From the NCBI RefSeq assembly GCF_000017305.1, contig NC_009664.2:4440001-4472000 (forward strand): a stretch of 32,000 nt of DNA, written 5' to 3'. The stretch is from Kineococcus radiotolerans SRS30216 = ATCC BAA-149. GTDB lineage: Bacteria > Actinomycetota > Actinomycetes > Actinomycetales > Kineococcaceae. The notes beneath the pieces are model-generated. The model saw only the letters and a program-made list of their open reading frames with translations, was not told where the DNA came from and made no database searches. Every line of letters starts with the position of its first letter. Within the stretch, counting starts at the first letter, position 1. The position numbers and the translations under genes are program-made. Positions 1 through 8,749 of the stretch are shown piece after piece.

Positions 1-936
1 TTCGACAAGACCCAGCGAGCCGGGGCGCCGGCGCCGGTGCTCATCCTGGACATGTCCACCTCCGGGCAGGTCTCCTGGGTCTCCTCCCTGCTCGCCGGCC
101 CGGAGCAGGCTGCGGCCGTGGAGGCGCTGCGGGTGCTGGACCAGGACTCGATCAAGGCCGCGATCTTGCGCAAGGCGTGCCGCACCCTGAAGGAGGCCTC
201 CGAGTCCGCCTTCCGGCTGGGCGACACCCTGAACACGATGGTGGTCTTCGACGAGGCGTGGCGCTACGCCCCGCCGCTGCACCTGGCCGGCGACGAGGAG
301 ATCAAGGCCCTCTCGGCCGACATCGCCGGCTACTTCCGCGACACCCGCAAGTTCGGTATCGGCTGGACGCTGATCAGCCAGTCCCCCCGCAGCGTGAACG
401 CGGACTGCTTCGACCAGATGGCGGTGCGCATCATGGGCTACGGCCTCGGTGGTGCGGACCTGGCCAAGGTCGCCGAGCAGATGGACGACCCGGAGCACCT
501 GAAGCTGTACCGGGCCTTCGCCCCGCCGGACTCCACCAAGCCCAAGGTGTACCCCTTCATGGTGACCGGCCCCGTCTCGCCGCTGTCCTTCACCCGGGCG
601 CCGGTGTTCCTGGCCGCCTACACCGACTTCGAGACCTTCCGCAGCGACAACCATCCGTGGATCAGCCAGGCCCGCCGCAGTCAGGGTCTGCCGGTCCTGT
701 CCGGCGTCCCCCAGCTGAGGGGCACCGGGCCGGTCGTGGCCGCCCGGGTCCCACGCCCCACTGCCACGGCCGGTCCTGTGAAGGGTGCTGCGGGGACGAA
801 GGAGGCGATGGAGCGGGTCCGCGAGAACGCCGCCACCGGTGGGATCGCCCCTGGTGCCTTCGCCGGGCTGGCCGGCGACACCTGGTTCGGCGGGGGACTG
901 GGCAGCATCGACGACGACGACCCGCCGCCGTTCTGA
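1..936 (+). CDS. FtsK/HerA/VirB4-superfamily P-loop ATPase, C-terminal part (5' end lies outside the window)
   Basis: Frame 1 is open from base 1 (FDKTQRAGAPAPVLILDM...), so the listed 37..936 ORF is only the in-window tail. There is a Walker-B-like VVFDEAW at 241-261, followed by a RDTRKFGIGWTLISQSPRSV block typical of DUF87/HerA-like and VirB4-like ATPases. The last ~80 aa are Gly/Pro/Ala-rich and end in DDDDPPPF. Confidence 0.7.
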   Translation, partial: FDKTQRAGAPAPVLILDMSTSGQVSWVSSLLAGPEQAAAVEALRVLDQDSIKAAILRKACRTLKEASESAFRLGDTLNTMVVFDEAWRYAPPLHLAGDEEIKALSADIAGYFRDTRKFGIGWTLISQSPRSVNADCFDQMAVRIMGYGLGGADLAKVAEQMDDPEHLKLYRAFAPPDSTKPKVYPFMVTGPVSPLSFTRAPVFLAAYTDFETFRSDNHPWISQARRSQGLPVLSGVPQLRGTGPVVAARVPRPTATAGPVKGAAGTKEAMERVRENAATGGIAPGAFAGLAGDTWFGGGLGSIDDDDPPPF

Positions 937-1126
937 CCGCGCCGTGGCGCTCGCGTGCCGCCGCTCGCTGGGACGGTCCGGGACGTCCGCGTCGCCCGGG
1001 CTCACTTCCGTGAGGCTCCGGAGGCCTCGCCTCGTGTCGGTCCGGCATGGGTCCCTGCACGGCGCGGCGCCGCCGGCACGTCAGTGAGCCCGGCGTGCCG
1101 CCTGCCCAGTGAGACATCATGTCCGA

Positions 1127-1156
1127 CGGTGCCCCTACGGTCGGTGCCCTTACGGT
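1127..1156. repeat. Two tandem 15-bp repeats (CGGTGCCCCTACGGT / CGGTGCCCTTACGGT) in the ATPase-mre11 spacer
   Basis: Counted directly: copy 1 is 1127-1141 and copy 2 is 1142-1156, with 14/15 identity. They lie ~40 bp upstream of the mre11-like start. Confidence 0.8.
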
Positions 1157-1197
1157 GTCGGCCGAGCAAGTGATCACGGTTGAAGGAGCTAGCGCAG

Positions 1198-2745
1198 GTG
1201 AGTGAGCCCGTCTACGAGGTCGGCTTCGTGGCCGATGCCCACCTCGGCTACGCCGCCCGGTGCGGCTCCCACCCGGCCTCAGGACTGAACCACCGGGTTC
1301 GCGACGGCTACCTGAGCTACCGCGCGGTCGTGCGGGACATGATCGCCAAGGAGGTGGACCTGGTCATCGACGGCGGGGACACCTTCCACCAGTCCCACCC
1401 CAGCATCGGGGCCATCGTCTGGGCCCGCCGGCAGATGGAAGCCCTCGCCGCCGCGGGCATCCCCGTCATCGGCAACACCGGCAACCACGACGCCTCGGCA
1501 GACCGCAGCAAGTCCCCGGCCACCGCAGCCATCAACGACCCCGCCCGCGGCATCGACTACGTCACCGAGCCCTACAGGGTCTTCGAGCCCCTCGAAGGTC
1601 TGGCCGTCCACATGATCAGCCACTACGGGCTGGCGCAGAGCGAGCGCCTGCTGCCCGAGCCGATCGACGGGGTCGTCAACCTGCTCTCTGCGCACGGGGC
1701 GGCGATGCTGCCCGGGCACGAGGTGTTCCGCTCGGTGGACTCCCCCGGGGAGGTGCCGATCGGGCTGGACATCCTGGCCGATGACCGGTTCGCGTTCAAA
1801 GCGCTCGGCCACTACCACGGCATGGGGGAGATCCTGCCCAACGTCTGGTACGCCGGCTCGCTGGTGCGGCGCGGGTTCGCCGACCCCGCGGGAGGTCGCG
1901 GCTGGCTGCTGTGCAAGGTGTTCGCCGACGGTCAGGTGGTGGTGGAGCCGCAGTACATCGACCAGCGCCCGCAGTTCGACCTGCCGCGCATCGACGCCAA
2001 GGGCAAGACCGGGGCGCAGGTCGAGGAGGAGATCCGCGCCAACCTGGAGACCGTGGACGTCGCCAACGCGATCATCCGCCAGGTCGTGGTCAACTGCTCG
2101 ACCAGCACACGCCGGGGCATCGACCAGCCGGCCCTGGCCAAGCTGACGGAGTCGGCGTTGATGTGGATGCCGGACTTCGTGCGCCCTCAAGCCTTCGATC
2201 AGACCCTTGATCGAGTCAGTGACCAATTGATCGATCCCGTCACCGGCCTGGTGGTCGACTCGGTCGGTGACGGCGTCACGGAAGCAGTCCCTGGAGCGGC
2301 TGCCGCAGTGGTCGCCGCGCGGACTGCCGACAGCGTCGCAGCGTCGCTGACGAGTGCCGGATCAGCCGATCTGCCCACGGTGTACGGATCCTGGGTGGAG
2401 GACTACGCGAGCGCTGTGGGTCTGGCGCAGGAGATGAAGCCAACCGTGATCACCGAGGGGATCCGGCACCTGAAGGCTGCGTCCCAGTTCGTCGAGACCG
2501 GTGACTTCGCCATCCCCGACGCCCGCGCCCGGCGCAGTGAACAGGAGCAGACCGCGGCTGAGCAGACACAACGTCTGCGGGCTGCAGCGCGGCGTTCCCC
2601 CTCTCAGGCCGTGGCCGGTGCAGACGTGCCGGGCACCAGCCCAGACACCAGCCCAGACACCAGCCCAGACACGAACCCAGGCGCAGGTGCGGATCCGGCA
2701 CCTGGGGTCCCCACGGACGCCGGCGCCGGGGAGGGGCTCTTCTGA
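1198..2745 (+). CDS. sbcD: Mre11/SbcD-family metallophosphoesterase nuclease with a long low-complexity C-terminal extension
   Basis: All six calcineurin-like/Mre11 motifs are readable: VADAHLG (DxH), DGGDTFH, GNTGNHD, ISHYG, LSAHG, GHYHG. The GTG at 1198 is preceded by AAGGAG (1183-1188), which makes it a better start than the track's TTG at 1180. The stop TGA (2743-2745) overlaps the ATG of the next gene by 1 nt. Confidence 0.85.
   Translation: MSEPVYEVGFVADAHLGYAARCGSHPASGLNHRVRDGYLSYRAVVRDMIAKEVDLVIDGGDTFHQSHPSIGAIVWARRQMEALAAAGIPVIGNTGNHDASADRSKSPATAAINDPARGIDYVTEPYRVFEPLEGLAVHMISHYGLAQSERLLPEPIDGVVNLLSAHGAAMLPGHEVFRSVDSPGEVPIGLDILADDRFAFKALGHYHGMGEILPNVWYAGSLVRRGFADPAGGRGWLLCKVFADGQVVVEPQYIDQRPQFDLPRIDAKGKTGAQVEEEIRANLETVDVANAIIRQVVVNCSTSTRRGIDQPALAKLTESALMWMPDFVRPQAFDQTLDRVSDQLIDPVTGLVVDSVGDGVTEAVPGAAAAVVAARTADSVAASLTSAGSADLPTVYGSWVEDYASAVGLAQEMKPTVITEGIRHLKAASQFVETGDFAIPDARARRSEQEQTAAEQTQRLRAAARRSPSQAVAGADVPGTSPDTSPDTSPDTNPGAGADPAPGVPTDAGAGEGLF
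2635..2670 (+). repeat. Three perfect in-frame 12-bp tandem repeats (ACCAGCCCAGAC) encoding (TSPD)3 in the Mre11 tail
   Basis: Counted directly: 2635-2646, 2647-2658 and 2659-2670 are identical. Confidence 0.9.
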
Positions 2746-5234
2746 TGATCACCATCGAATCGGTGGAGCTGGTCAACGTCCGCTCCATCGGCCGGGCCGT
2801 CGTCGAGCCGCTCGTCGACGGCGGAGTGACCGCCCTGAACGGCCCGCGCGGGGTGGGCAAGTCCACGGTCCTGATCGGCTTGCTGTACGCCCTGTTCGGC
2901 ACGACGCCCGACGGGGTACCGGCTCAGGCGCTGCGCCGACAGGGCAGTGAAGGTGAGGTCAAGATCGTCGTCACGTTCGTGCACGACGGTCAGCGCATCG
3001 TCCTCGAACGCGGCCTGAAGGGCAGGAACGACACCCCGTACGCCAAGGTCACCCTGAACGGTATCGAGCAGACCGTCGGCAAGATCAAAGCCGCGAACGA
3101 GTGGGTGATCCGCCGTTTCGGGGACCTGGACGCCACGGGATTCCTGGCTGCTTTCGTCGTGCGCCAGAAGGAGCTGGACGCGCTGGTCAAGGCCCGCGCC
3201 GCGGACCGGCGTGCGCTGTTCGAGCGCCTTGCGGGCATCGACCGGATGAGCGATGCCGTCAAGACCGCCCGCGCGGAGGAGACCGCCGCCAAGACCACCC
3301 TGGAGCACCTGCCCGGCTCCGCCGAGGAAGCCGCCGCCGCCCGCACCGACCTTCAGCGTGCCCAGGAACACGCCGCTACGGCCTGGAAGGACTTCGAGGC
3401 CGCCAGCGCCGCCGTCGGTGCTGAGGACCAGGCCCTCGCACAGGCCACCGAGCACTTCGAGGACGTCACGGCCCGGGTCCGCGCCCACCAGGAAGCCGCC
3501 CAGACCGCCCAACAGGTCGAGCACCACCGGGTCCTGACCGCCGAACGCGCCCAGCACGCCGCCCGCGAGGTCGACCGGCTCACCGCCGCCTCCGCCGGCG
3601 GCACCGCCGAAGCCGTCCACGCCGCCCGCGCCGCGCTGACCCAGGCTCAGCAGGCCGTCGCCGAGAACCAGGCCGCCCGTGCGGCCGCCCGCACGGCCAC
3701 CGCCGCTGCCACCGCCGACGCGCGCCGGGCTCAGCAGGCCCAGGCGGCAGCAGCACGAGCACGGACGGCGCTCACCGCGGCAAGCGCTGAGGCCGACAAG
3801 CAGGCCCGGCTGACTACCGCCGTCCCGGCGGACCTGCCCCAGCAGCTCCAGGCCGCCAACGCCCGGGCCGGCGAGCTGCAGGAACAGCGAGGGGTGTTGC
3901 GCGGGGAGTACCAGCGCCTCGAAGGATCCATCAAAGCCCTCAGCGCCACGGTGGACCCCACCTGCCCGACCTGCTCCACAGCCCTGGCCGACCCCCAGGA
4001 GCTGCTGCAGACCCTGCGCACAGCCCTGGACCGCGTCCGTGAGCAAGGGGTGACGGCCAAAGCCCAGCAGGAACAGGCCGCCGAGCGAGCACAGGCGCTG
4101 GCCGCGCAGATCGCCCAGGCCCAGCAGATCCAGCAGGCCGCCGAGTTCGCCCGACAGCAGCACCAGGCAGCGCTCGCGGCCGCGCAGGAGGCCGAAGCCG
4201 CCGCGGACTTGTTGCAGGCCGAGGCCGAGGCCAGCGCTCAGGATGCGCGGCAGGCGCAGACACGGGCGGAGGCGGCGGTGGCTGCCGAAGGCGGGGTACG
4301 AACCGCGTTCGAGGCCGCCTCGGCCAGGCTGCGCCAGGCCGAGTCAGCCGCCGAAGCCGCTGCGGCGCTGGCGCAGGCACTGGCCACGGCGGAGGAGGCG
4401 CAGACCGCAGCGGCCGCCGCGGTCACCGCCGCTGAGCAGGCCGCCGCGCTGGCTGCCGCCGCGGCCGTTCCCGACACTGAGCGGGTGCAGGCGCAGGCGA
4501 TGCTGACGGCGGCCGGTCAGCGCGTGCAGGAGCTGCGCTCGGCGATGCAGGCCGCGCAGGCCGAGCACCGGCTGGCGGAGCAGCAGGTCAAGCACAGTGA
4601 GATGGCCCGGGACCAGGCTGAGCTGCGGCTGAAGAACCGGGCCGCCGCCGCCGCGGAGTACGAGCGGCGGACCGCGGTGCGCGAGGCGCTGGACACCTTC
4701 CGCAAGGACCGGATCGCGCGCCTGGCTCCGGAGGTCTCGGAGGTGGCCACCGACCTGATCGCGCGGATGACCAGCGGCCGCTACGTCTCGATCGAGCTGG
4801 ACGAGGAGTTCACCGCGGCGGTCACCGACGACACCGGCCAGACGCGTCCGGTCACCTGGCTCTCCGGAGGCGAGGAGTCCGTCGTGGCCTTCGCGTTGCG
4901 GGTGGCGCTGGGTGAGCTGTGGGCCGGTCAGCGCGGAGGGCTGCTGTTCCTCGACGAGCCGTTCACCGCGCAGGACGTCGCCAGCCGGACGGCGATGATG
5001 GCCGCCATCCGGGACCTGCCGAACCGGCAGGTCATCATCATCAACCACGCCTCCGAGGCCACCGACATGGTGGACCTGGTCCTCAACGTCGTGCCCGACG
5101 ACGAGACCGGCGCCCGGATCGAGGGAGCCTCCGCGTTCATCGAGATGCCCGAAGCGGTGTTGGCCGGCATCGACGAGGACGACCTCACGCCGGGTCCGAT
5201 CGCCTCGGACGATCGTTCGGCGAGCATTCCGTGA
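2745..5234 (+). CDS. sbcC: Rad50/SbcC-family SMC-like ATPase with coiled coil and zinc hook
   Basis: Readable motifs: N-terminal Walker A GPRGVGKST (2841-2867); Q-loop-like VVRQKE; a ~550-aa Ala/Gln/Glu-rich coiled-coil region; a central CPTC hook at 3963-3974 (residues 407-410 of 829); C-terminal signature LSGGE (4860-4874); Walker B LLFLDEPF (4941-4964); H-loop-like IIINHASE. Confidence 0.9.
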   Translation: MITIESVELVNVRSIGRAVVEPLVDGGVTALNGPRGVGKSTVLIGLLYALFGTTPDGVPAQALRRQGSEGEVKIVVTFVHDGQRIVLERGLKGRNDTPYAKVTLNGIEQTVGKIKAANEWVIRRFGDLDATGFLAAFVVRQKELDALVKARAADRRALFERLAGIDRMSDAVKTARAEETAAKTTLEHLPGSAEEAAAARTDLQRAQEHAATAWKDFEAASAAVGAEDQALAQATEHFEDVTARVRAHQEAAQTAQQVEHHRVLTAERAQHAAREVDRLTAASAGGTAEAVHAARAALTQAQQAVAENQAARAAARTATAAATADARRAQQAQAAAARARTALTAASAEADKQARLTTAVPADLPQQLQAANARAGELQEQRGVLRGEYQRLEGSIKALSATVDPTCPTCSTALADPQELLQTLRTALDRVREQGVTAKAQQEQAAERAQALAAQIAQAQQIQQAAEFARQQHQAALAAAQEAEAAADLLQAEAEASAQDARQAQTRAEAAVAAEGGVRTAFEAASARLRQAESAAEAAAALAQALATAEEAQTAAAAAVTAAEQAAALAAAAAVPDTERVQAQAMLTAAGQRVQELRSAMQAAQAEHRLAEQQVKHSEMARDQAELRLKNRAAAAAEYERRTAVREALDTFRKDRIARLAPEVSEVATDLIARMTSGRYVSIELDEEFTAAVTDDTGQTRPVTWLSGGEESVVAFALRVALGELWAGQRGGLLFLDEPFTAQDVASRTAMMAAIRDLPNRQVIIINHASEATDMVDLVLNVVPDDETGARIEGASAFIEMPEAVLAGIDEDDLTPGPIASDDRSASIP

Positions 5235-5354
5235 CGTCGCCCGCGTCGAAGTCGCGATAATCAATAGTCAGGCGAGTGCGACGCCTGTGACCGCGGTCTC
5301 GCCCTCACCTTGCAGCCCAATGTTTCGCTGCTGGACCCGGACGGGGTGTAGGAG

Positions 5355-6227
5355 TTGATCGGCTACCCCTACAGGACCCTGCCGCGGTCGCTGCTGGCGT
5401 GGCTGACGACGGAGGCGGTGCGGACGAAGAGCCGCACCATCCCGCTGGGGGAGTCCCTCAGCGACTTCTGCCGCCAGCTCGAGCTGCCCATCACCGGGCT
5501 GCAGATCCGCCGGCTGAAGGACCAGGCCCGGCGGCTGTTCAACGCCCGCCTCTCCGTGCACTACGTCGAACACCTCGAGACCGACCCATCCCCGCGAGGA
5601 CAGCGTCGTCAGGTGCGTCAGGAGGCGGGGCAGAACCTGCTCATCGCCTCCCGCTACGAGCTGTGGACCACCACCCAGCGCAGCGCCAAGACGTCCGAGC
5701 TCGAGGCGGCCGCTGAGCCCACCGCGAAGCCGGCCGTGCGGCGTGGCACCAAAGCAGACGCCGCCCAAGCCGCCGCCCAGAGCGCTGCCCAGACTGGCGC
5801 CGCCCAGCGGGGTGCGAAGCCAACGGCAGTGACGGTGGAGACCAGCTTGCCCTCCAGCGTCACCCTCAGCGCGGAGCTGTACGAGGAAGTCACCCACCGC
5901 CCCGTCCCCGTCGACATCGGCGCGCTGCGGCTGCTGCGCGGCTCCCCGTTGCGCTTGGACGTGTACACGTGGCTGACGTACCGGATGAGCTACCTGCGCA
6001 AGCCCGTGGTCGTTACCTGGGAGCAGCTGCGGTTCCAGTTCGGCACCCAGGTCTCCACCCCACGTGGCTACCGGCACTTCCGGGCGGACTTCTCCGAGGC
6101 GTTGCGGTGGGTGCTGGCTATCTACCGGGAGGCGAAGGTGGACGAGGTCGGCAACGGGATCCGCCTGCGGCCCTCTCCACCGCACGTGGGACGTGGCAAG
6201 CGGCCCGCGCTGAACCAGCGCGGCTGA
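5355..6227 (+). CDS. repA: Plasmid RepA-family replication initiator-like protein (RepA_C type), possibly N-terminally short
   Basis: The blocks LPRSLLAWLTTEAVRTKSRTIPLGESLSDF and VPVDIGALRLLRGSPLRLDVYTWLTYRMSY...WEQLRFQFG match my recollection of the plasmid-encoded RepA family. The TTG start comes immediately after an in-frame TAG. The 3' end overlaps a 13-bp tandem repeat array. An Ala/Gln-rich low-complexity insert sits mid-protein. Confidence 0.7.
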   Translation: MIGYPYRTLPRSLLAWLTTEAVRTKSRTIPLGESLSDFCRQLELPITGLQIRRLKDQARRLFNARLSVHYVEHLETDPSPRGQRRQVRQEAGQNLLIASRYELWTTTQRSAKTSELEAAAEPTAKPAVRRGTKADAAQAAAQSAAQTGAAQRGAKPTAVTVETSLPSSVTLSAELYEEVTHRPVPVDIGALRLLRGSPLRLDVYTWLTYRMSYLRKPVVVTWEQLRFQFGTQVSTPRGYRHFRADFSEALRWVLAIYREAKVDEVGNGIRLRPSPPHVGRGKRPALNQRG

Positions 6228-6280
6228 CGCACGTGGCTGACGCACGTGGCTGACGCACGCGGCTGACGCACGCGGCTGAG
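6222..6280. repeat. Iteron-like array: 4 full plus 1 partial copies of a 13-bp unit GGCTGACGCACG(T/C)
   Basis: Counted directly: 6222-6234, 6235-6247, 6248-6260 and 6261-6273, with a partial copy at 6274-6280. The array starts on the repA stop codon (TGA 6225-6227). Degenerate copies lie at ~6181-6198 and ~6289-6300. An exact rotated unit (CACGTGGCTGACG) lies inside repA at 5966-5978. Confidence 0.85.
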
Positions 6281-6433
6281 ACGTAGGGCGTAACGCACGG
6301 GACGGACGTTCGTGGCCGACGCGTGGGGTCGAGAGTCGGTATCTCTTGCGTCCGGTGATTCTTCTGCGTTCACTGACCACGACGAATCTCCTCCACGGTC
6401 GACCACCCGCCCTTTGAGAACCGGAGCACCGCC

Positions 6434-7591
6434 ATGGCCAAAGCTGACCACGCCGTCTCACTGAACATGTCCGCCGCCATCACCGTCGGCTCCCGCACCG
6501 TGGAGGTGCCGGTACGGCGCAACGGCCGCCGTGTCGGGGTGCTGAGCATCAGCGGTCAGGGCGTGCAGTGGGACCCATCGACTACCCGGCCACCGGTCAA
6601 CGTCAGCTGGGAGGACCTCCCCGCCGTTCTGAAGTCGGCGACGTCCTCATCCGCTACCCCGGCGAGCAGCCCGAGGCCGTCCACCAAGCGCAGCGCGGCC
6701 CCTGCCTCCCGCAACCGAGCGGCAGCCGCCTCGAGAAGCACCGCCAGTACACCGGCCGGACCCGCGCCAGCTGACAAGACCAGCGACCGCAAGACCAGCG
6801 ACCGCGAGACCAGTGACCGCGAGGCCGGTGAGCGTGAGGCCGGTAGCAACGAGGCGGCACCTCAGCGCTCGCGCCCAGCGGGTAGGAGCGCAGCACGCCG
6901 CAAGACCGCCGGGGCGGCACGCCAGGCGAGCGGACGCACCGAGGCCACCACGAATGCGGTCACCTCCCTCTCCGACATGCCGACCACGGCAGGCTCGAGC
7001 GACGAGCCGCCGACCACGGCAGCCGCCACTGCTGAGGCGCTCTCCCTGGAGGCCTTCCTGGAAGGGGCCGCGCCGTCGGGGACACCCGCGACCACGGACA
7101 CCACCGTCAACCCCGCCGACACCTCCACCGCCGGCAGCACCACCGTCGGCAGCACCACAGGTGACGTGGGCAGCGGGCAGGTGCCGGGGCAGCAGGCGCT
7201 ACCTCTAGAGGGACGCGACCCCCTTGATCCCACCGGGGCCGGGGCTCAGATCAGTATCGAGGCCGACGACACACTCACCGCACTCACCTCTGCGCCCGAA
7301 CCCGGTGCCGAGTCGGACGCCACAGCGGCAGCGGAGCCGGCGAGCCGCAGGGCCGCGGCTCGTAGGGGCGCGAAGAAGGCCCCGCCGCGTCAGGCGGGGG
7401 AGCCGGCCGCGCGGGAGGTGACCTCAGCCCCTGCCCGGGCGAAGACCTCCACCGTCCCCGGCGCGGGCACCGACACCACGCCGTTGGATGCGCGGGTGGT
7501 GCGGCAGTGGGCGGCGGCCAACGGCATCACTGTTCCCCCGCGCGGCCCGCTGAGTACCAAGGTCCGGGAGCAGTACCTGGCCGCTCACTGA
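6434..7591 (+). CDS. Mostly disordered protein with an Lsr2-type C-terminal DNA-binding domain
   Basis: The C-terminal VVRQWAAANGITVPPRGPLSTKVREQYLAAH resembles the Lsr2 DNA-binding domain (mycobacterial ...[29 protein letters not shown]). GGAG lies 7 nt upstream of the ATG. About 270 aa of Ser/Thr/Ala/Pro/Arg-rich linker separates it from a small N-terminal ~65-aa globular-looking segment of unknown type. Confidence 0.7.
   Translation: MAKADHAVSLNMSAAITVGSRTVEVPVRRNGRRVGVLSISGQGVQWDPSTTRPPVNVSWEDLPAVLKSATSSSATPASSPRPSTKRSAAPASRNRAAAASRSTASTPAGPAPADKTSDRKTSDRETSDREAGEREAGSNEAAPQRSRPAGRSAARRKTAGAARQASGRTEATTNAVTSLSDMPTTAGSSDEPPTTAAATAEALSLEAFLEGAAPSGTPATTDTTVNPADTSTAGSTTVGSTTGDVGSGQVPGQQALPLEGRDPLDPTGAGAQISIEADDTLTALTSAPEPGAESDATAAAEPASRRAAARRGAKKAPPRQAGEPAAREVTSAPARAKTSTVPGAGTDTTPLDARVVRQWAAANGITVPPRGPLSTKVREQYLAAH
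6776..6850 (+). repeat. Five in-frame 15-bp tandem repeats (two perfect, then decaying) encoding KTSDR-KTSDR-ETSDR-EAGER-EAGSN
   Basis: Counted directly: 6776-6790 and 6791-6805 are identical (AAGACCAGCGACCGC). The next three units diverge progressively. Confidence 0.85.
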
Positions 7592-7622
7592 CCATGGCTC
7601 ACTGACTGCGGCTCACTGACCG
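7581..7622. repeat. Three tandem 14-bp repeats with an invariant core GCTCACTGAC
   Basis: Units are 7581-7594, 7595-7608 and 7609-7622. The first unit contains the stop codon of the Lsr2-like gene. Related single copies are GCGTTCACTGACCAC at 6366-6380 and GTCTCACTGAA at 6456-6466. Confidence 0.8.
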
Positions 7623-7645
7623 CGATCCGCGACCGGCGTGACGAG

Positions 7646-7684
7646 GGCGGGTGGCTGCGTGCACGAGATGCGCAGCCACCCGCC
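7646..7684 (+). terminator. Perfect 14-bp stem hairpin downstream of the Lsr2-like gene (candidate intrinsic terminator, no U-tract)
   Basis: GGCGGGTGGCTGCG (7646-7659) is the exact reverse complement of CGCAGCCACCCGCC (7671-7684), with an 11-nt loop. Confidence 0.5.
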
Positions 7685-7924
7685 GCCGCAGACACCGCGG
7701 GCATCGCGGCGTGAGCCTGCGGTCACTCTCTGCGGGGTCAGGACGGTAGATCTGAGACGGGGGCCTGGGGACGTACCCGAATCGGCCTGGCCGTTCCGGC
7801 CATGCTGTCCCGGCCGTGCTGTCCCTATGGCTGTCAGGCCCACGCAGGGGGCGGGACCGCTCCTCGCGCCTACCCTGGGTGGGACCGCACCCGTCCTGCG
7901 TTGAGAAGAGTTCCTCCTGTGTCT

Positions 7925-8308
7925 ATGCCGTCCCCGCGCCCCTCAGCGCTGCTGCGCGCGCCTCGAGCCGGCGCGCAGCTCGCCGCGTTGTTGTGGAAGC
8001 GGCGCCGGCTACGCCAGGACGTGGAGACCATCGTCGCCGGCTACGTCGCCGGTCTGCACCCGCGGGAGAACGTTGCTGAGGGGTTCAGTGCCCACCGGCG
8101 CTGGTCGGTCTTCCCCACCGGCCGTGGCAGCGTCATGGTCACCGTCAGCGTGGCGCACATCAGCGCCACCTCCACTGAGAGCGTGGCCCGCCTGGATTGG
8201 GAGTACGGGCTGCTGCAGGAGCTGCGGGTCCTGCTGGAGCAGCACGGTCACCGGGTGGTCGAGGTCTTCACCGACTGGCGGGTCACCGCCTTGGACGTGC
8301 ACTCCTGA
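7925..8308 (+). CDS. Hypothetical protein (127 aa from ATG 7925)
   Basis: The ORF frame has consistently G/C third positions from about 7925 onward. I recognise no motif. The track start at 7802 looks like a non-coding extension. The true start is uncertain. Confidence 0.45.
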   Translation: MPSPRPSALLRAPRAGAQLAALLWKRRRLRQDVETIVAGYVAGLHPRENVAEGFSAHRRWSVFPTGRGSVMVTVSVAHISATSTESVARLDWEYGLLQELRVLLEQHGHRVVEVFTDWRVTALDVHS

Positions 8309-8749
8309 GAGTGGGGGGCAGCTGAGGTCGGGGATCAAACGTGGCGGCAGCGGACGCAGGTGGCCGCGGCGGCGCTCCCTACCTACGCCCGTGCGTTCGC
8401 GTACGGACGGAAAGCCGAGCCCACGAGAGTGGTTGCTCATCGTCAGCGGAGTGCTGCCTTCGTCGGTCACCAGCTCGAGCACCCTCCCGCGGTCAGGCTG
8501 GCCAGGTCTCATCGGCCGCAGCGACTTGAGCGGTCTCGGTGGCCTCGGTCGCCTCGGCCGTTCGGTGAGCCGGAGTGAGATGGGTCGCACGTCGCCTCGC
8601 TGCGGCCTGTTGCGGTTGCGTCCTCAGCGAGTAGGGGATCATGGTGAGGTGTCAACCGGTCAGGTCGTGGCGGCGCACCCTGCCTACCGTCCGTCATCCG
8701 TCTGCCCCCGTCGTCTATCCATCGTCTGTGCAGCACATCTGGGAGAACA

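Follow-up and report, generated by a model that had tools for sequence, protein, structure and literature searches.

The archaeal genera Sulfolobus and Pyrococcus carry a herA-mre11-rad50-nurA operon (Constantinesco 2004; PMC3326311; PMC2288612), and both of the encoded pairs, HerA-NurA and Mre11-Rad50, act in end resection (PMC3326311, PMC9960219, PMC7752040). Bacterial NurA-HerA systems are described for Deinococcus radiodurans (PMC9960219) and for Thermus, with the ATPase HepA (PMC5448004). The nurA-hepA-sbcD-sbcC cluster of Oceanithermus profundus is the published bacterial precedent for SbcD and SbcC encoded downstream of herA (PMC5448004). The genome paper on Kineococcus radiotolerans, an actinobacterium resistant to radiation, lists Krad_2553 as SbcC and Krad_2554 as SbcD, gives no other such pair and notes the lack of RecJ and Ku (PMC2587704). 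This annotated SbcCD constitutes the last two genes of a nurA-herA-mre11-rad50 set.

The window, a stretch of 32,000 nt, was assigned to K. radiotolerans SRS30216 and to the loci Krad_2550 to Krad_2555 by exact protein look-ups with accessions. Positions 1-5234 encode the C-terminal part of HerA and the complete Mre11 and Rad50 (Table 1). The herA frame (frame 1) enters open from the left edge with a GC3 of 0.94 and ends with ...DDDDPPPF*. The sequence left of the window was read from the identical public contig, which encodes the full HerA of 700 aa and, directly upstream, a NurA homologue of 423 aa. Hence, the unit in K. radiotolerans is a four-gene nurA-herA-mre11-rad50 operon of the archaeal type, presumably Krad_2556 to Krad_2553, and positions 1-5234 probably represent its downstream three quarters on a linear chromosome. 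A preliminary description of the window had recognised the archaeal-type arrangement from the three visible genes, and the NurA homologue bears this out; of the neighbours it had considered upstream of position 1, a NurA-like nuclease or genes of a type IV secretion system (T4SS), the former is present and the latter are absent.

Table 1 Features of the K. radiotolerans locus, in window positions
Feature	Position	Strand	Remarks
HerA ATPase, C-terminal 311 of 700 aa (Krad_2555, ABS04030)	1..936	+	Walker B VVFDEAWRY and disordered linker
HerA acidic C-terminal tail	892..933	+	GGLGSIDDDDPPPF; clade-specific
Inverted repeat	996..1093	.	17-nt arms, 88% complementary, 64-nt loop; in herA-mre11 spacer
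Mre11/SbcD-family nuclease, 515 aa (Krad_2554)	1198..2745	+	alternative TTG start at 1180
Rad50/SbcC-family ATPase, 829 aa (Krad_2553, ABS04028)	2745..5234	+	Pfam, motifs
Zinc-hook codons CPTC, residues 407-410 of 829	3963..3974	+	also in plasmid-borne homologues
G+C-rich hairpin	5269..5287	.	just 3' of rad50
Plasmid-type replication initiator RepA, 290 aa (ABS04027; by inference Krad_2552)	5355..6227	+	RepA_C
Iteron array, 4.7 copies of 13-nt unit CGCGGCTGACGCA	6219..6279	.	95% matching, TRF score 108
385-aa protein, mostly disordered, C-terminal Lsr2-type DNA-binding domain	6434..7591	+	RepA block
Small ORF Krad_2550 (ABS04025)	7802..8308	+	final gene of block common to sister assembly

The upstream protein itself stays below the gathering score of the Pfam family NurA (PF09376; 13.6 bits vs 21, E 0.047), but 13 of 30 aligned homologues match this family (best E 1.9e-12) and no other. 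The sole PDB match of the homologue profile was NurA from P. furiosus (3tai, E 0.015), in an alignment spanning the catalytic VDG(S). Residues D59, E118 and D133 are invariant. In 72 of 80 genomes, archaea among them, a nurA homologue lies immediately upstream of herA. Together, the identical contig and the Pfam affiliation of the homologues place the NurA partner gene adjacent to herA in K. radiotolerans.

Taken alone, the 311-aa HerA fragment yielded zero Pfam matches and only weak matches to NCBIfam HerA models (1e-4), whereas the full-length protein affiliates with DUF87/HerA (PF01935; 28.3 bits vs a cut-off of 23.2). The Walker A residues G195, G198, G200 and K201 and the Walker B residues D473 and E474 are invariant in the alignment. 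A profile search of the PDB retrieved HerA structures as the best matches (9c1m at 7e-13, 4d2i at 5e-11, plus other HerA entries). With 32 bits vs a cut-off of 970, the protein does not reach the NCBIfam equivalog of the archaeal double-strand-break-repair HerA (NF040819 / NF040937) and is, judged by its sequence, a divergent family member and not an equivalog. An ATPase of the VirB4/TraC conjugation type that belongs to a T4SS operon and has no connection with the nuclease pair can be ruled out for practical purposes: faint P-loop matches to TrwB_AAD_bind (E 0.005), VirB4_plasma (E 0.034) and TraB (E 0.036) were all that pointed in this direction, against a DUF87 score above the Pfam cut-off, the HerA structures as the best PDB profile matches, the NurA gene directly upstream and the absence of any T4SS gene from the window and the upstream contig.

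The mre11 frame has a GC3 of 0.87. All five phosphoesterase motifs (DAH, GGDTFH, GNHD, SAH and GHYH) are present in the translation and invariant in 44 homologues, and the Pfam family Metallophos was matched with 27 bits vs a cut-off of 21.5. The AlphaFold model has a pLDDT of 80, mostly above 90 for residues 1-330. In a fold search with this model, the top 50 PDB matches were all Mre11/SbcD proteins, with E-values down to 8e-19 and target-normalised TM-scores of 0.6-0.73, and E. coli SbcD ranked under archaeal Mre11 structures. The protein thus has, as modelled, the nuclease and capping-domain fold. Helices predicted with mixed confidence at residues 392-465 are candidates for the C-terminal Rad50-binding helices.

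The rad50 frame (GC3 0.88) encodes the Walker A motif GPRGVGKST, the Q-loop, the signature LSGGE, the Walker B motif LLFLDEPF and the H-loop. Pfam matches were SMC_N (43.2 bits vs a cut-off of 40) and AAA_23 (39.2 vs 27). The best NCBIfam model was archaeal Rad50 (9e-30), with SbcC behind at 2e-10, and Rad50 heads in the PDB matched at 1e-15. A coiled coil probably surrounds the hook, as the composition rich in Ala, Gln and Glu suggests. All four proteins score far below the NCBIfam equivalog cut-offs, so that their functional orthology is presumptive. The initial assignment of the three window genes to an ATPase, Mre11 and Rad50 holds on Pfam, motifs and structures, and the length of Rad50, its central CPTC and the overlap of the rad50 start codon with the mre11 stop codon (TGATG at 2743-2747) were read directly from the sequence.

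Similar to the archaeal operons, the locus clusters the same four families in one orientation, with adjacent and translationally coupled mre11 and rad50 genes and a Rad50 in the range of ~830-880 aa with a central CxxC hook; Rad50, Mre11 and HerA all match the archaeal NCBIfam models best. In contrast to these operons, the genes here belong to a mesophilic actinobacterium and run in the order nurA-herA-mre11-rad50, with 261 nt between herA and mre11, the scores fall far short of the equivalogs, HerA carries an additional linker of ~90 aa and an acidic PPF tail, and NurA, Mre11 and Rad50 possess long low-complexity tails. The inverted repeat within the spacer could act as a terminator or in regulation. 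With the bacterial NurA-HerA systems of Deinococcus and Thermus the locus shares nurA directly before herA, but it derives from a different phylum, its HerA shares only ~27-30% identity with the majority of the retrieved bacterial HerAs, and the SSB-like tail is specific to its HerA clade. E. coli SbcCD belongs to the same superfamilies and is likewise encoded by a nuclease-ATPase gene pair; however, its ATPase comprises ~1048 aa, whereas the Kineococcus protein is shorter and scores far better with the archaeal Rad50 model than with the SbcC model, and the Kineococcus pair has the nuclease gene first and the ATPase gene second, embedded with nurA and herA.

The locus was compared with K. aurantiacus, Kineococcus sp. 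DK005 and DK006 and a sister K. radiotolerans assembly (n=4). The four genes are contiguous in all four. Homology across Kineococcus is confined to the stretch from nurA to ~34 nt past rad50 (ending at ~5268), and the cassette lies in three different contexts, the flanks in DK005 and DK006 being alike. In the sister assembly, herA and mre11 are each 98.4% and rad50 is 95.5% identical at the nucleotide level, with substitutions mostly at third codon positions. The operon is probably under purifying selection and intact throughout the genus.

The 120 nt past rad50 lead to a RepA gene. The RepA block of 3.1 kb (5269-8334) comprises RepA, the iterons, the protein with the Lsr2-type domain and a small ORF. 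RepA matches RepA_C (PF04796) with 52.7 bits vs a cut-off of 26 and aligns in full length with plasmid RepAs (1084 plasmid records, best identity 42%). Iteron plasmids with a PF04796 RepA include Pseudonocardia pLS2-1, Corynebacterium crudilactis pCRULAC1 and plasmids from Micrococcus and Xanthomonas. The iteron array starts inside the final repA codons, with degenerate copies at 6298, 5966 and 5399; direct repeats just downstream of repA are also found in pCRULAC1. The RepA gene and iterons of the preliminary description are thus real. Unlike in the iteron plasmids, the Kineococcus RepA is chromosomal with no par, tra or mob genes nearby and contains an Ala/Gln-rich insert of ~60 aa. In the sister assembly, repA is 91.8% identical and carries a frameshift, the eroded iteron region is 88.7% identical with 26 nt deleted and two iterons gone, and an in-frame stop interrupts the small ORF; the RepA module decays while the repair genes stay conserved. 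SRS30216 retains an intact repA gene and an iteron array with 95% regularity, which gives no obvious sign of a dead replicon.

Only the K. radiotolerans lineage has RepA next to the cassette; K. aurantiacus, DK005 and DK006 have none beside their four genes. We therefore favour, as the likelier though by no means settled explanation, a selected double-strand-break-resection operon adjoining the remnant of an integrated plasmid replicon, which looks like a lineage-specific insertion and not a part of the resection machine. By analogy to the archaeal system, a Mre11 dimer together with Rad50, its zinc hook and its coiled coil would recognise and clip DNA ends, a HerA hexamer would next translocate the duplex into a NurA dimer for 5'-3' resection, and the resulting 3' tail would be used by RecA in recombinational repair. 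An iteron plasmid would have integrated beside these genes in the K. radiotolerans lineage, with the RepA block as its basic replicon, and the operon would function without this block.

The preliminary description had proposed that the block travels with, or had inserted into, an extrachromosomal or integrated element, and this claim fared unevenly. The variable flanks fit it, as do the conservation of cassette and RepA block as one unit to ~8334 in both K. radiotolerans assemblies and the occurrence of homologous sets on plasmids. Against it stand the three Kineococcus species without an adjacent RepA, the decay of the RepA module beside conserved repair genes, and the content of the window, which lacks integrase, transfer and partition genes, in which searches for tRNA, att-type and flanking repeats found none, and whose other genes are ordinary chromosomal ones. 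The GC3 of the cassette also agrees with that of the host genes.

At least five large plasmids of actinobacteria carry sets of NurA, HerA, Mre11 and Rad50 homologues; HerA homologues occur on eight and Mre11 homologues on 17 of such plasmids (144-437 kb). On plasmids of Dietzia, Rhodococcus and Corynebacterium, the four homologues are ordered as in Kineococcus, Rad50 has the CPTC hook and HerA ends in the PPF tail, and pCRULAC1 carries a RepA of the same family (E 5e-22) and about six iterons of 21-22 nt directly upstream of nurA. These plasmid sets, read from sequence, keep the mobile-element idea alive. The four genes could accordingly be cargo of large actinobacterial extrachromosomal replicons that reached the chromosome by plasmid integration, with the RepA/iteron block as the trace of the vehicle; the set would then serve the replicon itself, a megaplasmid or linear replicon, for instance in break repair, end processing or recombination-dependent replication. 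This we regard as a tentative minority reading. In its favour, the cassette has sharp edges, and the contigs of the nearest metagenomic relatives abound in genes with no Pfam match and also encode TK, dCTP deaminase, NrdJ, a lone GyrB, HNH and PNKP. Yet the plasmid Mre11s (29-38% identity) are much more distant than those metagenomic relatives (55-62%), the plasmid and metagenomic loci have no genes in common except the four, and in the Mycobacteriales megaplasmid sets (Rhodococcus p1-type, Dietzia, pCRULAC1) unrelated genes on either strand lie between them. The favoured reading of a resident operon next to a plasmid remnant has its own counterpoints: variable flanks and a conserved cassette-RepA unit also fit a mobile cassette, and the homologous megaplasmid sets include one beside a RepA origin. 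In the literature searched, no description of the megaplasmid sets was found, and their proteins are annotated merely as hypothetical, DUF87 or SMC.

The variable genomic neighbourhood would also accommodate an anti-phage or anti-plasmid defence, in which a HerA ATPase and an SMC-like sensor act with nucleases, cf. Sir2-HerA, DUF4297-HerA, Lamassu and MADS. PADLOC models mad3 (5.5e-30) and LmuB (3e-27) match Rad50, and mad8 (3.8e-10) and HerA models (2e-7) match HerA. These matches concern generic SMC and P-loop heads and do not surpass those to the Rad50 and HerA repair models; NCBIfam anti-phage HerA models reach only E 0.02-0.03 vs 5e-8 for the repair HerA model, PADLOC matched neither Mre11 nor NurA, effectors of the Sir2, DUF4297 or LmuA type are absent, and nurA-herA is an ancestral repair pairing common to archaea. 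The anti-phage role considered before thus finds no support, and a defence function appears improbable.

Among the 80 retrieved genomes, linkage of herA with Mre11-Rad50 was confined to Kineococcus and one Bacteroidia MAG, in which it arose convergently; two related metagenomic loci, one of them from a MAG assembly, also link herA with Mre11-Rad50. The HerA clade to which the K. radiotolerans protein belongs ends in the acidic …IDDDDPPPF, which we take to resemble the C-terminal tip of SSB, and PF forms the C-terminal end in 78 of the 87 HerA homologues with at least 41% identity.

Three co-oriented genes, picked out by a codon-position G+C filter (GC3 0.87-0.94), occupy positions 1-5234 of the window and encode the C-terminal part of a HerA-type ATPase, Mre11 and Rad50. 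Mre11 contains the motifs DAH, GGDTFH, GNHD, SAH and GHYH, and Rad50 the Walker A, Q-loop, LSGGE, Walker B and H-loop motifs together with a CPTC hook (residues 407-410). The two genes are translationally coupled by the overlap of the mre11 stop and rad50 start codons in TGATG (2743-2747), just 5' of which lies GGAGGGG. The gene identities, the CPTC hook, the codon overlap, the gap before repA, the RepA assignment and the iterons had been read from the sequence in a preliminary description, whose observations were correct throughout. The best NCBIfam models were archaeal Rad50 for Rad50 (9e-30 vs 2e-10 for SbcC) and archaeal Mre11 for Mre11 (4e-11), all far under the equivalog cut-offs. An AlphaFold model of Mre11, calculated with 44 homologues as input, reached a mean pLDDT of 80; all 50 of its best PDB fold matches were Mre11/SbcD proteins, with archaeal structures ranked first. 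Low-complexity C-terminal tails are common to NurA (see below), Mre11 and Rad50, and TSPD repeats in the Mre11 tail derive from an in-frame 12-nt unit present three times (2629-2676).

Features at the left side of the window and their nucleotide identity to the sister assembly GCA_014191015.1
Feature	Position	Strand	Characteristics	Identity to sister assembly
HerA, C-terminal part (ABS04030)	1-936	+	frame 1 open at left edge; terminates ...GGLGSIDDDDPPPF*	98.4%; substitutions chiefly at third codon positions
Mre11, 515-aa metallophosphoesterase	1198-2745 (alternative TTG start 1180)	+	five Mre11 motifs	98.4%; substitutions chiefly at third codon positions
Rad50, 829-aa SMC-type ATPase (ABS04028, Krad_2553)	2745-5234	+	ATPase motifs and CPTC	95.5%; substitutions chiefly at third codon positions
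RepA (RepA_C; ABS04027, annotated 'replication protein RepA')	5355-6227		120 nt after rad50	91.8%; frameshifted there
Iterons	6219-6279		4.7 near-perfect 13-nt repeats	88.7% (iteron region); two iterons deleted, remainder degenerate
Lsr2-like gene				91.2%
Small ORF (Krad_2550)	7802-8308			89.7%; in-frame stop

The accessions obtained by cluster look-ups (Table) place the window on the chromosome of K. radiotolerans SRS30216. Its sequence is extended leftward by a public contig of 8.4 kb (exact Rad50 match) that agrees fully with it at an offset of 3097 nt. Full-length HerA comprises 700 aa and scores above the Pfam HerA (DUF87) cut-off. It is preceded, at a distance of 149 nt, by a gene for a 423-aa protein matching Pfam NurA below threshold (E 0.047). 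Among 30 aligned homologues of this protein 13 matched Pfam NurA (best 1.9e-12) and no other family, and the alignment profile had P. furiosus NurA as its sole PDB match, spanning the catalytic VDGS motif. The HerA profile matched solved HerA structures; alignment profiles were required for these PDB matches, as searches with the single NurA or HerA sequences gave nothing. A homologue of the 423-aa gene was located by phmmer immediately 5' of herA in 72 of the 80 genomes encoding a HerA relative, including those of the archaea Ferroglobus, Methanomassiliicoccales and Promethearchaeota. In the NCBIfam ranking of HerA, the repair HerA model (5e-8) stood far above anti-phage HerA, VirB4 and TraB (0.02-0.04). 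The NurA tests, the HerA structure-profile matches and this ranking identify the unit, at the level of sequence, as nurA-herA-mre11-rad50. The preliminary description had pointed to the region upstream of base 1 as the place to look for either a NurA-like nuclease or type IV secretion genes; a NurA homologue was found there, and together with the HerA structure matches and the ranking of repair HerA it refutes the secretion-system alternative. Inteins (Hom_end/LAGLIDADG_3) interrupt HerA in K. aurantiacus, Kineococcus sp. DK006 and several metagenomic homologues; the K. radiotolerans HerA has none.

The 261-nt spacer between herA and mre11 contains an inverted repeat, and the operon may hence be split into two transcription units. 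No sigma-70-like promoter was found, inspection by eye upstream of nurA gave no convincing match to a LexA-type or RecA-independent damage box, and the window contained no Rfam families. An identical 8437-nt Logan assembly unitig occurs in at least nine sequencing runs, ending 106 nt past rad50 (window ~5340) and 510 nt before nurA; no terminal repeats that could account for these shared ends were found.

Among known systems, the archaeal herA-mre11-rad50-nurA operon is the nearest. NurA-HerA pairs are already known from the bacteria Deinococcus and Thermus, and Oceanithermus profundus, in which sbcD-sbcC lie downstream of nurA-hepA, provides a bacterial precedent for the four-gene layout (PMC5448004). 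In the literature searched we found no paper describing this layout in Actinobacteria or on plasmids. By analogy with archaeal and Deinococcus systems (PMC3326311, PMC9960219, PMC2288612, PMC7752040), Mre11-Rad50 would detect and clip DNA ends, a HerA6-NurA2 complex would then perform ATP-driven 5'-3' resection, and the resulting 3' tail would be loaded with RecA. The gamma-radiation resistance of K. radiotolerans approaches that of Deinococcus, and the Deinococcus-specific repair genes are absent from its genome (PMC2587704). The genome paper entered ABS04028 (Krad_2553) as SbcC and the pair Krad_2553 and Krad_2554 simply as SbcCD (PMC2587704). As half of a complete NurA-HerA-Mre11-Rad50 operon, the pair becomes a concrete candidate for double-strand-break processing in this organism. 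Since K. radiotolerans is without RecJ and Ku and no other SbcC is listed (PMC2587704), the operon is plausible as a major end processor. It would also offer a mesophilic bacterial model for a machine studied almost exclusively in hyperthermophilic archaea.

At the HerA C-terminus (window 850-933), the clade of K. radiotolerans carries a disordered linker and then a conserved terminal peptide of the form ...GL(S/D)xIDDDxPPF; of the 87 homologues with at least 41% identity, 78 end in this peptide, the last two residues being PF. The next HerA clade ends in acidic residues followed by F[ILMV], and more distant HerAs are without such a tail. We take the tip of this tail to match the C-terminal protein-interaction tip of SSB, which reads DDDIPF in E. 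coli and ...FGGGDDEPPF in mycobacteria; the SSB alignment itself ended 11 residues before the mycobacterial C-terminus. It is in this clade with the SSB-like tail that HerA and the Mre11-Rad50 pair occur together. A PDB search with the tail peptide returned nothing useful, and no paper on an SSB-like tip of HerA was found in the literature searched. The 32 nt coding for the HerA tail segment GSIDDDDPP (899-930) are 81% identical to the stretch for AGIDEDDLTP at the C-terminus of Rad50 (5161-5192), a likeness that may reflect chance or a common peptide motif.

Besides repA and the iterons, the block that follows rad50 comprises a small ORF and the gene for a 385-aa protein that includes an Lsr2 DNA-binding domain. 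Its make-up resembles that of an iteron plasmid's basic replicon. RepA aligned over its full length with the RepAs of 1084 plasmid records, the best being from Pseudonocardia plasmids (42% identity). At the DNA level, searches of plasmids with the first 8 kb or with the RepA block gave nothing or merely short stretches of RepA. In some public sequencing runs a 12-nt insertion adds DIST after RepA residue 74, so that K. radiotolerans material is polymorphic for this indel. The Lsr2-domain gene contains an in-frame 15-nt tandem unit in three to four copies (6777-6855).

The sister assembly, likewise labelled K. radiotolerans, shares cassette and RepA block as one stretch, and homology stops at window position 8334. 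The herA, mre11 and rad50 genes are conserved under purifying selection. The graded identities, together with the frameshift in repA, the loss of iterons and the in-frame stop (Table), show that selection maintains the repair genes and not the replicon. On its left flank a Pfam scan of the sister assembly gave orphan ORFs and a YhcG fragment and nothing else. The window contains no integrase, tRNA, flanking repeats, partition or transfer genes, and a search of the ends of the cassette and of the RepA block for att-type repeats, direct or inverted, gave none; downstream of 8334 it encodes ordinary carbohydrate-utilisation, transporter and regulator functions.

The four repair genes are also contiguous in K. 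aurantiacus and in Kineococcus sp. DK005 and DK006, with no RepA there. Translated homology to K. radiotolerans extends from the nurA start to ~34 nt past the rad50 stop (window ~5268), and the flanks share no homology among the K. radiotolerans, K. aurantiacus and DK005 contexts. The K. aurantiacus cassette is flanked by luciferase-like and AraC/SDR genes. In DK005 a 1028-aa RecG-like helicase and a 559-aa RadA/Sms-like protein are encoded upstream, and an SSB ending ...GAPF and a DinG-like helicase downstream; the latter two genes recur in DK006 along with a patatin-like gene. The DK005 cassette is thus embedded in a cluster of further DNA-repair paralogues (contig L004, 42-17251). Considering these neighbourhoods, the decay in the sister assembly and the gene content of the window, we prefer to read the locus as an operon beside which the remnant of an unrelated plasmid is integrated.

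The genome paper locates dnaA (Krad_0001) close to the middle of the linear chromosome (PMC2587704); judged by locus-tag numbers, Krad_2553 would then be a few hundred genes away from one of the ends. In K. aurantiacus ~0.2 Mb separates the cassette from the end of its 4.85-Mb contig. The G+C content averaged over window 1-32000 (~0.69, about 70%) is below the 74.2% reported for the genome (PMC2587704) and the sister assembly is wholly divergent past 8334, which suggests a variable, possibly arm-located region. A location on a chromosome arm would account for the variable flanks without mobility of the cassette.

Tblastn against plasmids detected HerA homologues on 8 and Mre11 homologues on 17 large actinobacterial plasmids of 144-437 kb, the latter from Rhodococcus (14), Dietzia, Corynebacterium crudilactis (pCRULAC1) and Streptomyces anulatus (one each). 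Dietzia, Rhodococcus and Corynebacterium plasmids encode all four homologues in the same order with few interspersed genes (NurA 1e-12 to 1e-17, HerA 1e-79 to 1e-90, Mre11 1e-36 to 1e-48, Rad50 1e-25 to 1e-28); their Rad50 proteins possess the CPTC hook and their HerA copies the same PF-ending tail. The conserved region reads NurA, two unknown minus-strand genes, HerA, Mre11 and Rad50, and is annotated merely as hypothetical, DUF87 or SMC. An AAA-ATPase gene follows the set on the Dietzia and C. crudilactis plasmids, on the former beside a vWA gene, and DnaG and cutinase genes precede it on the Dietzia and Rhodococcus plasmids. Directly 5' of nurA, pCRULAC1 encodes a same-family RepA (5e-22) accompanied by about six iterons of 21-22 nt (L092, the pCRULAC1 sequence, 4906-6125). 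The earlier proposal that the cassette belongs to a RepA element therefore holds in part: the megaplasmid sets and the RepA neighbour on pCRULAC1 agree with it, but the other Kineococcus cassettes are without RepA and the replicon of the sister assembly is decaying. The megaplasmid family of Rhodococcus, Dietzia and Corynebacterium suggests that end resection is linked with replicon maintenance, and the SSB-like tail of HerA that it is linked with the SSB interaction network.

At least ten metagenomic contigs, which may be chromosomes or giant elements, encode both HerA and Mre11 homologues at 45-70% identity, in arrangements that vary from divergent clusters to genes 15-25 kb apart, with NrdJ in between on three contigs. 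They contain many genes without Pfam hits as well as TK, dCTP deaminase, a lone GyrB, HNH and PNKP. In the closest non-Kineococcus relatives (loci L086/L094, L088/L095 and L098) the order NurA-HerA, class II ribonucleotide reductase, Mre11-Rad50 is recurrent, and the nucleotide-metabolism genes TK, dCTP deaminase and NT5C surround this neighbourhood, as do HNH and PNKP genes and the lone GyrB. Plasmid and metagenomic loci have just the four families in common, which marks NurA, HerA, Mre11 and Rad50 as one putative functional module. Compared with the metagenomic copies, those on plasmids are further removed from the Kineococcus genes and are therefore not their direct donors. A phage origin is not supported: HerA had no tblastn match among GenBank phages, and its IMG/VR relatives are distant (at most 39% identity).

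A wider reading, which we regard as rather unlikely, is that a distinct actinobacterial module of NurA, HerA with its SSB-like tail, Mre11 and Rad50 forms a replicon-associated machine for end processing or recombination-dependent replication. Its range would take in chromosomes, at least five megaplasmids and metagenomic contigs in which many genes lack Pfam hits, and it would be associated with replication origins, as RepA and iterons adjoin it both in K. radiotolerans and on pCRULAC1. The module might have a further role at chromosome ends in Kineococcus, for whose linear chromosome no telomere system is known (PMC2587704). The HerA hexamer would display six mimics of the SSB C-terminal tip (...FGGGLGSIDDDDPPPF), which would either connect the machine with the SSB interactome of the host or act as competitors of SSB.
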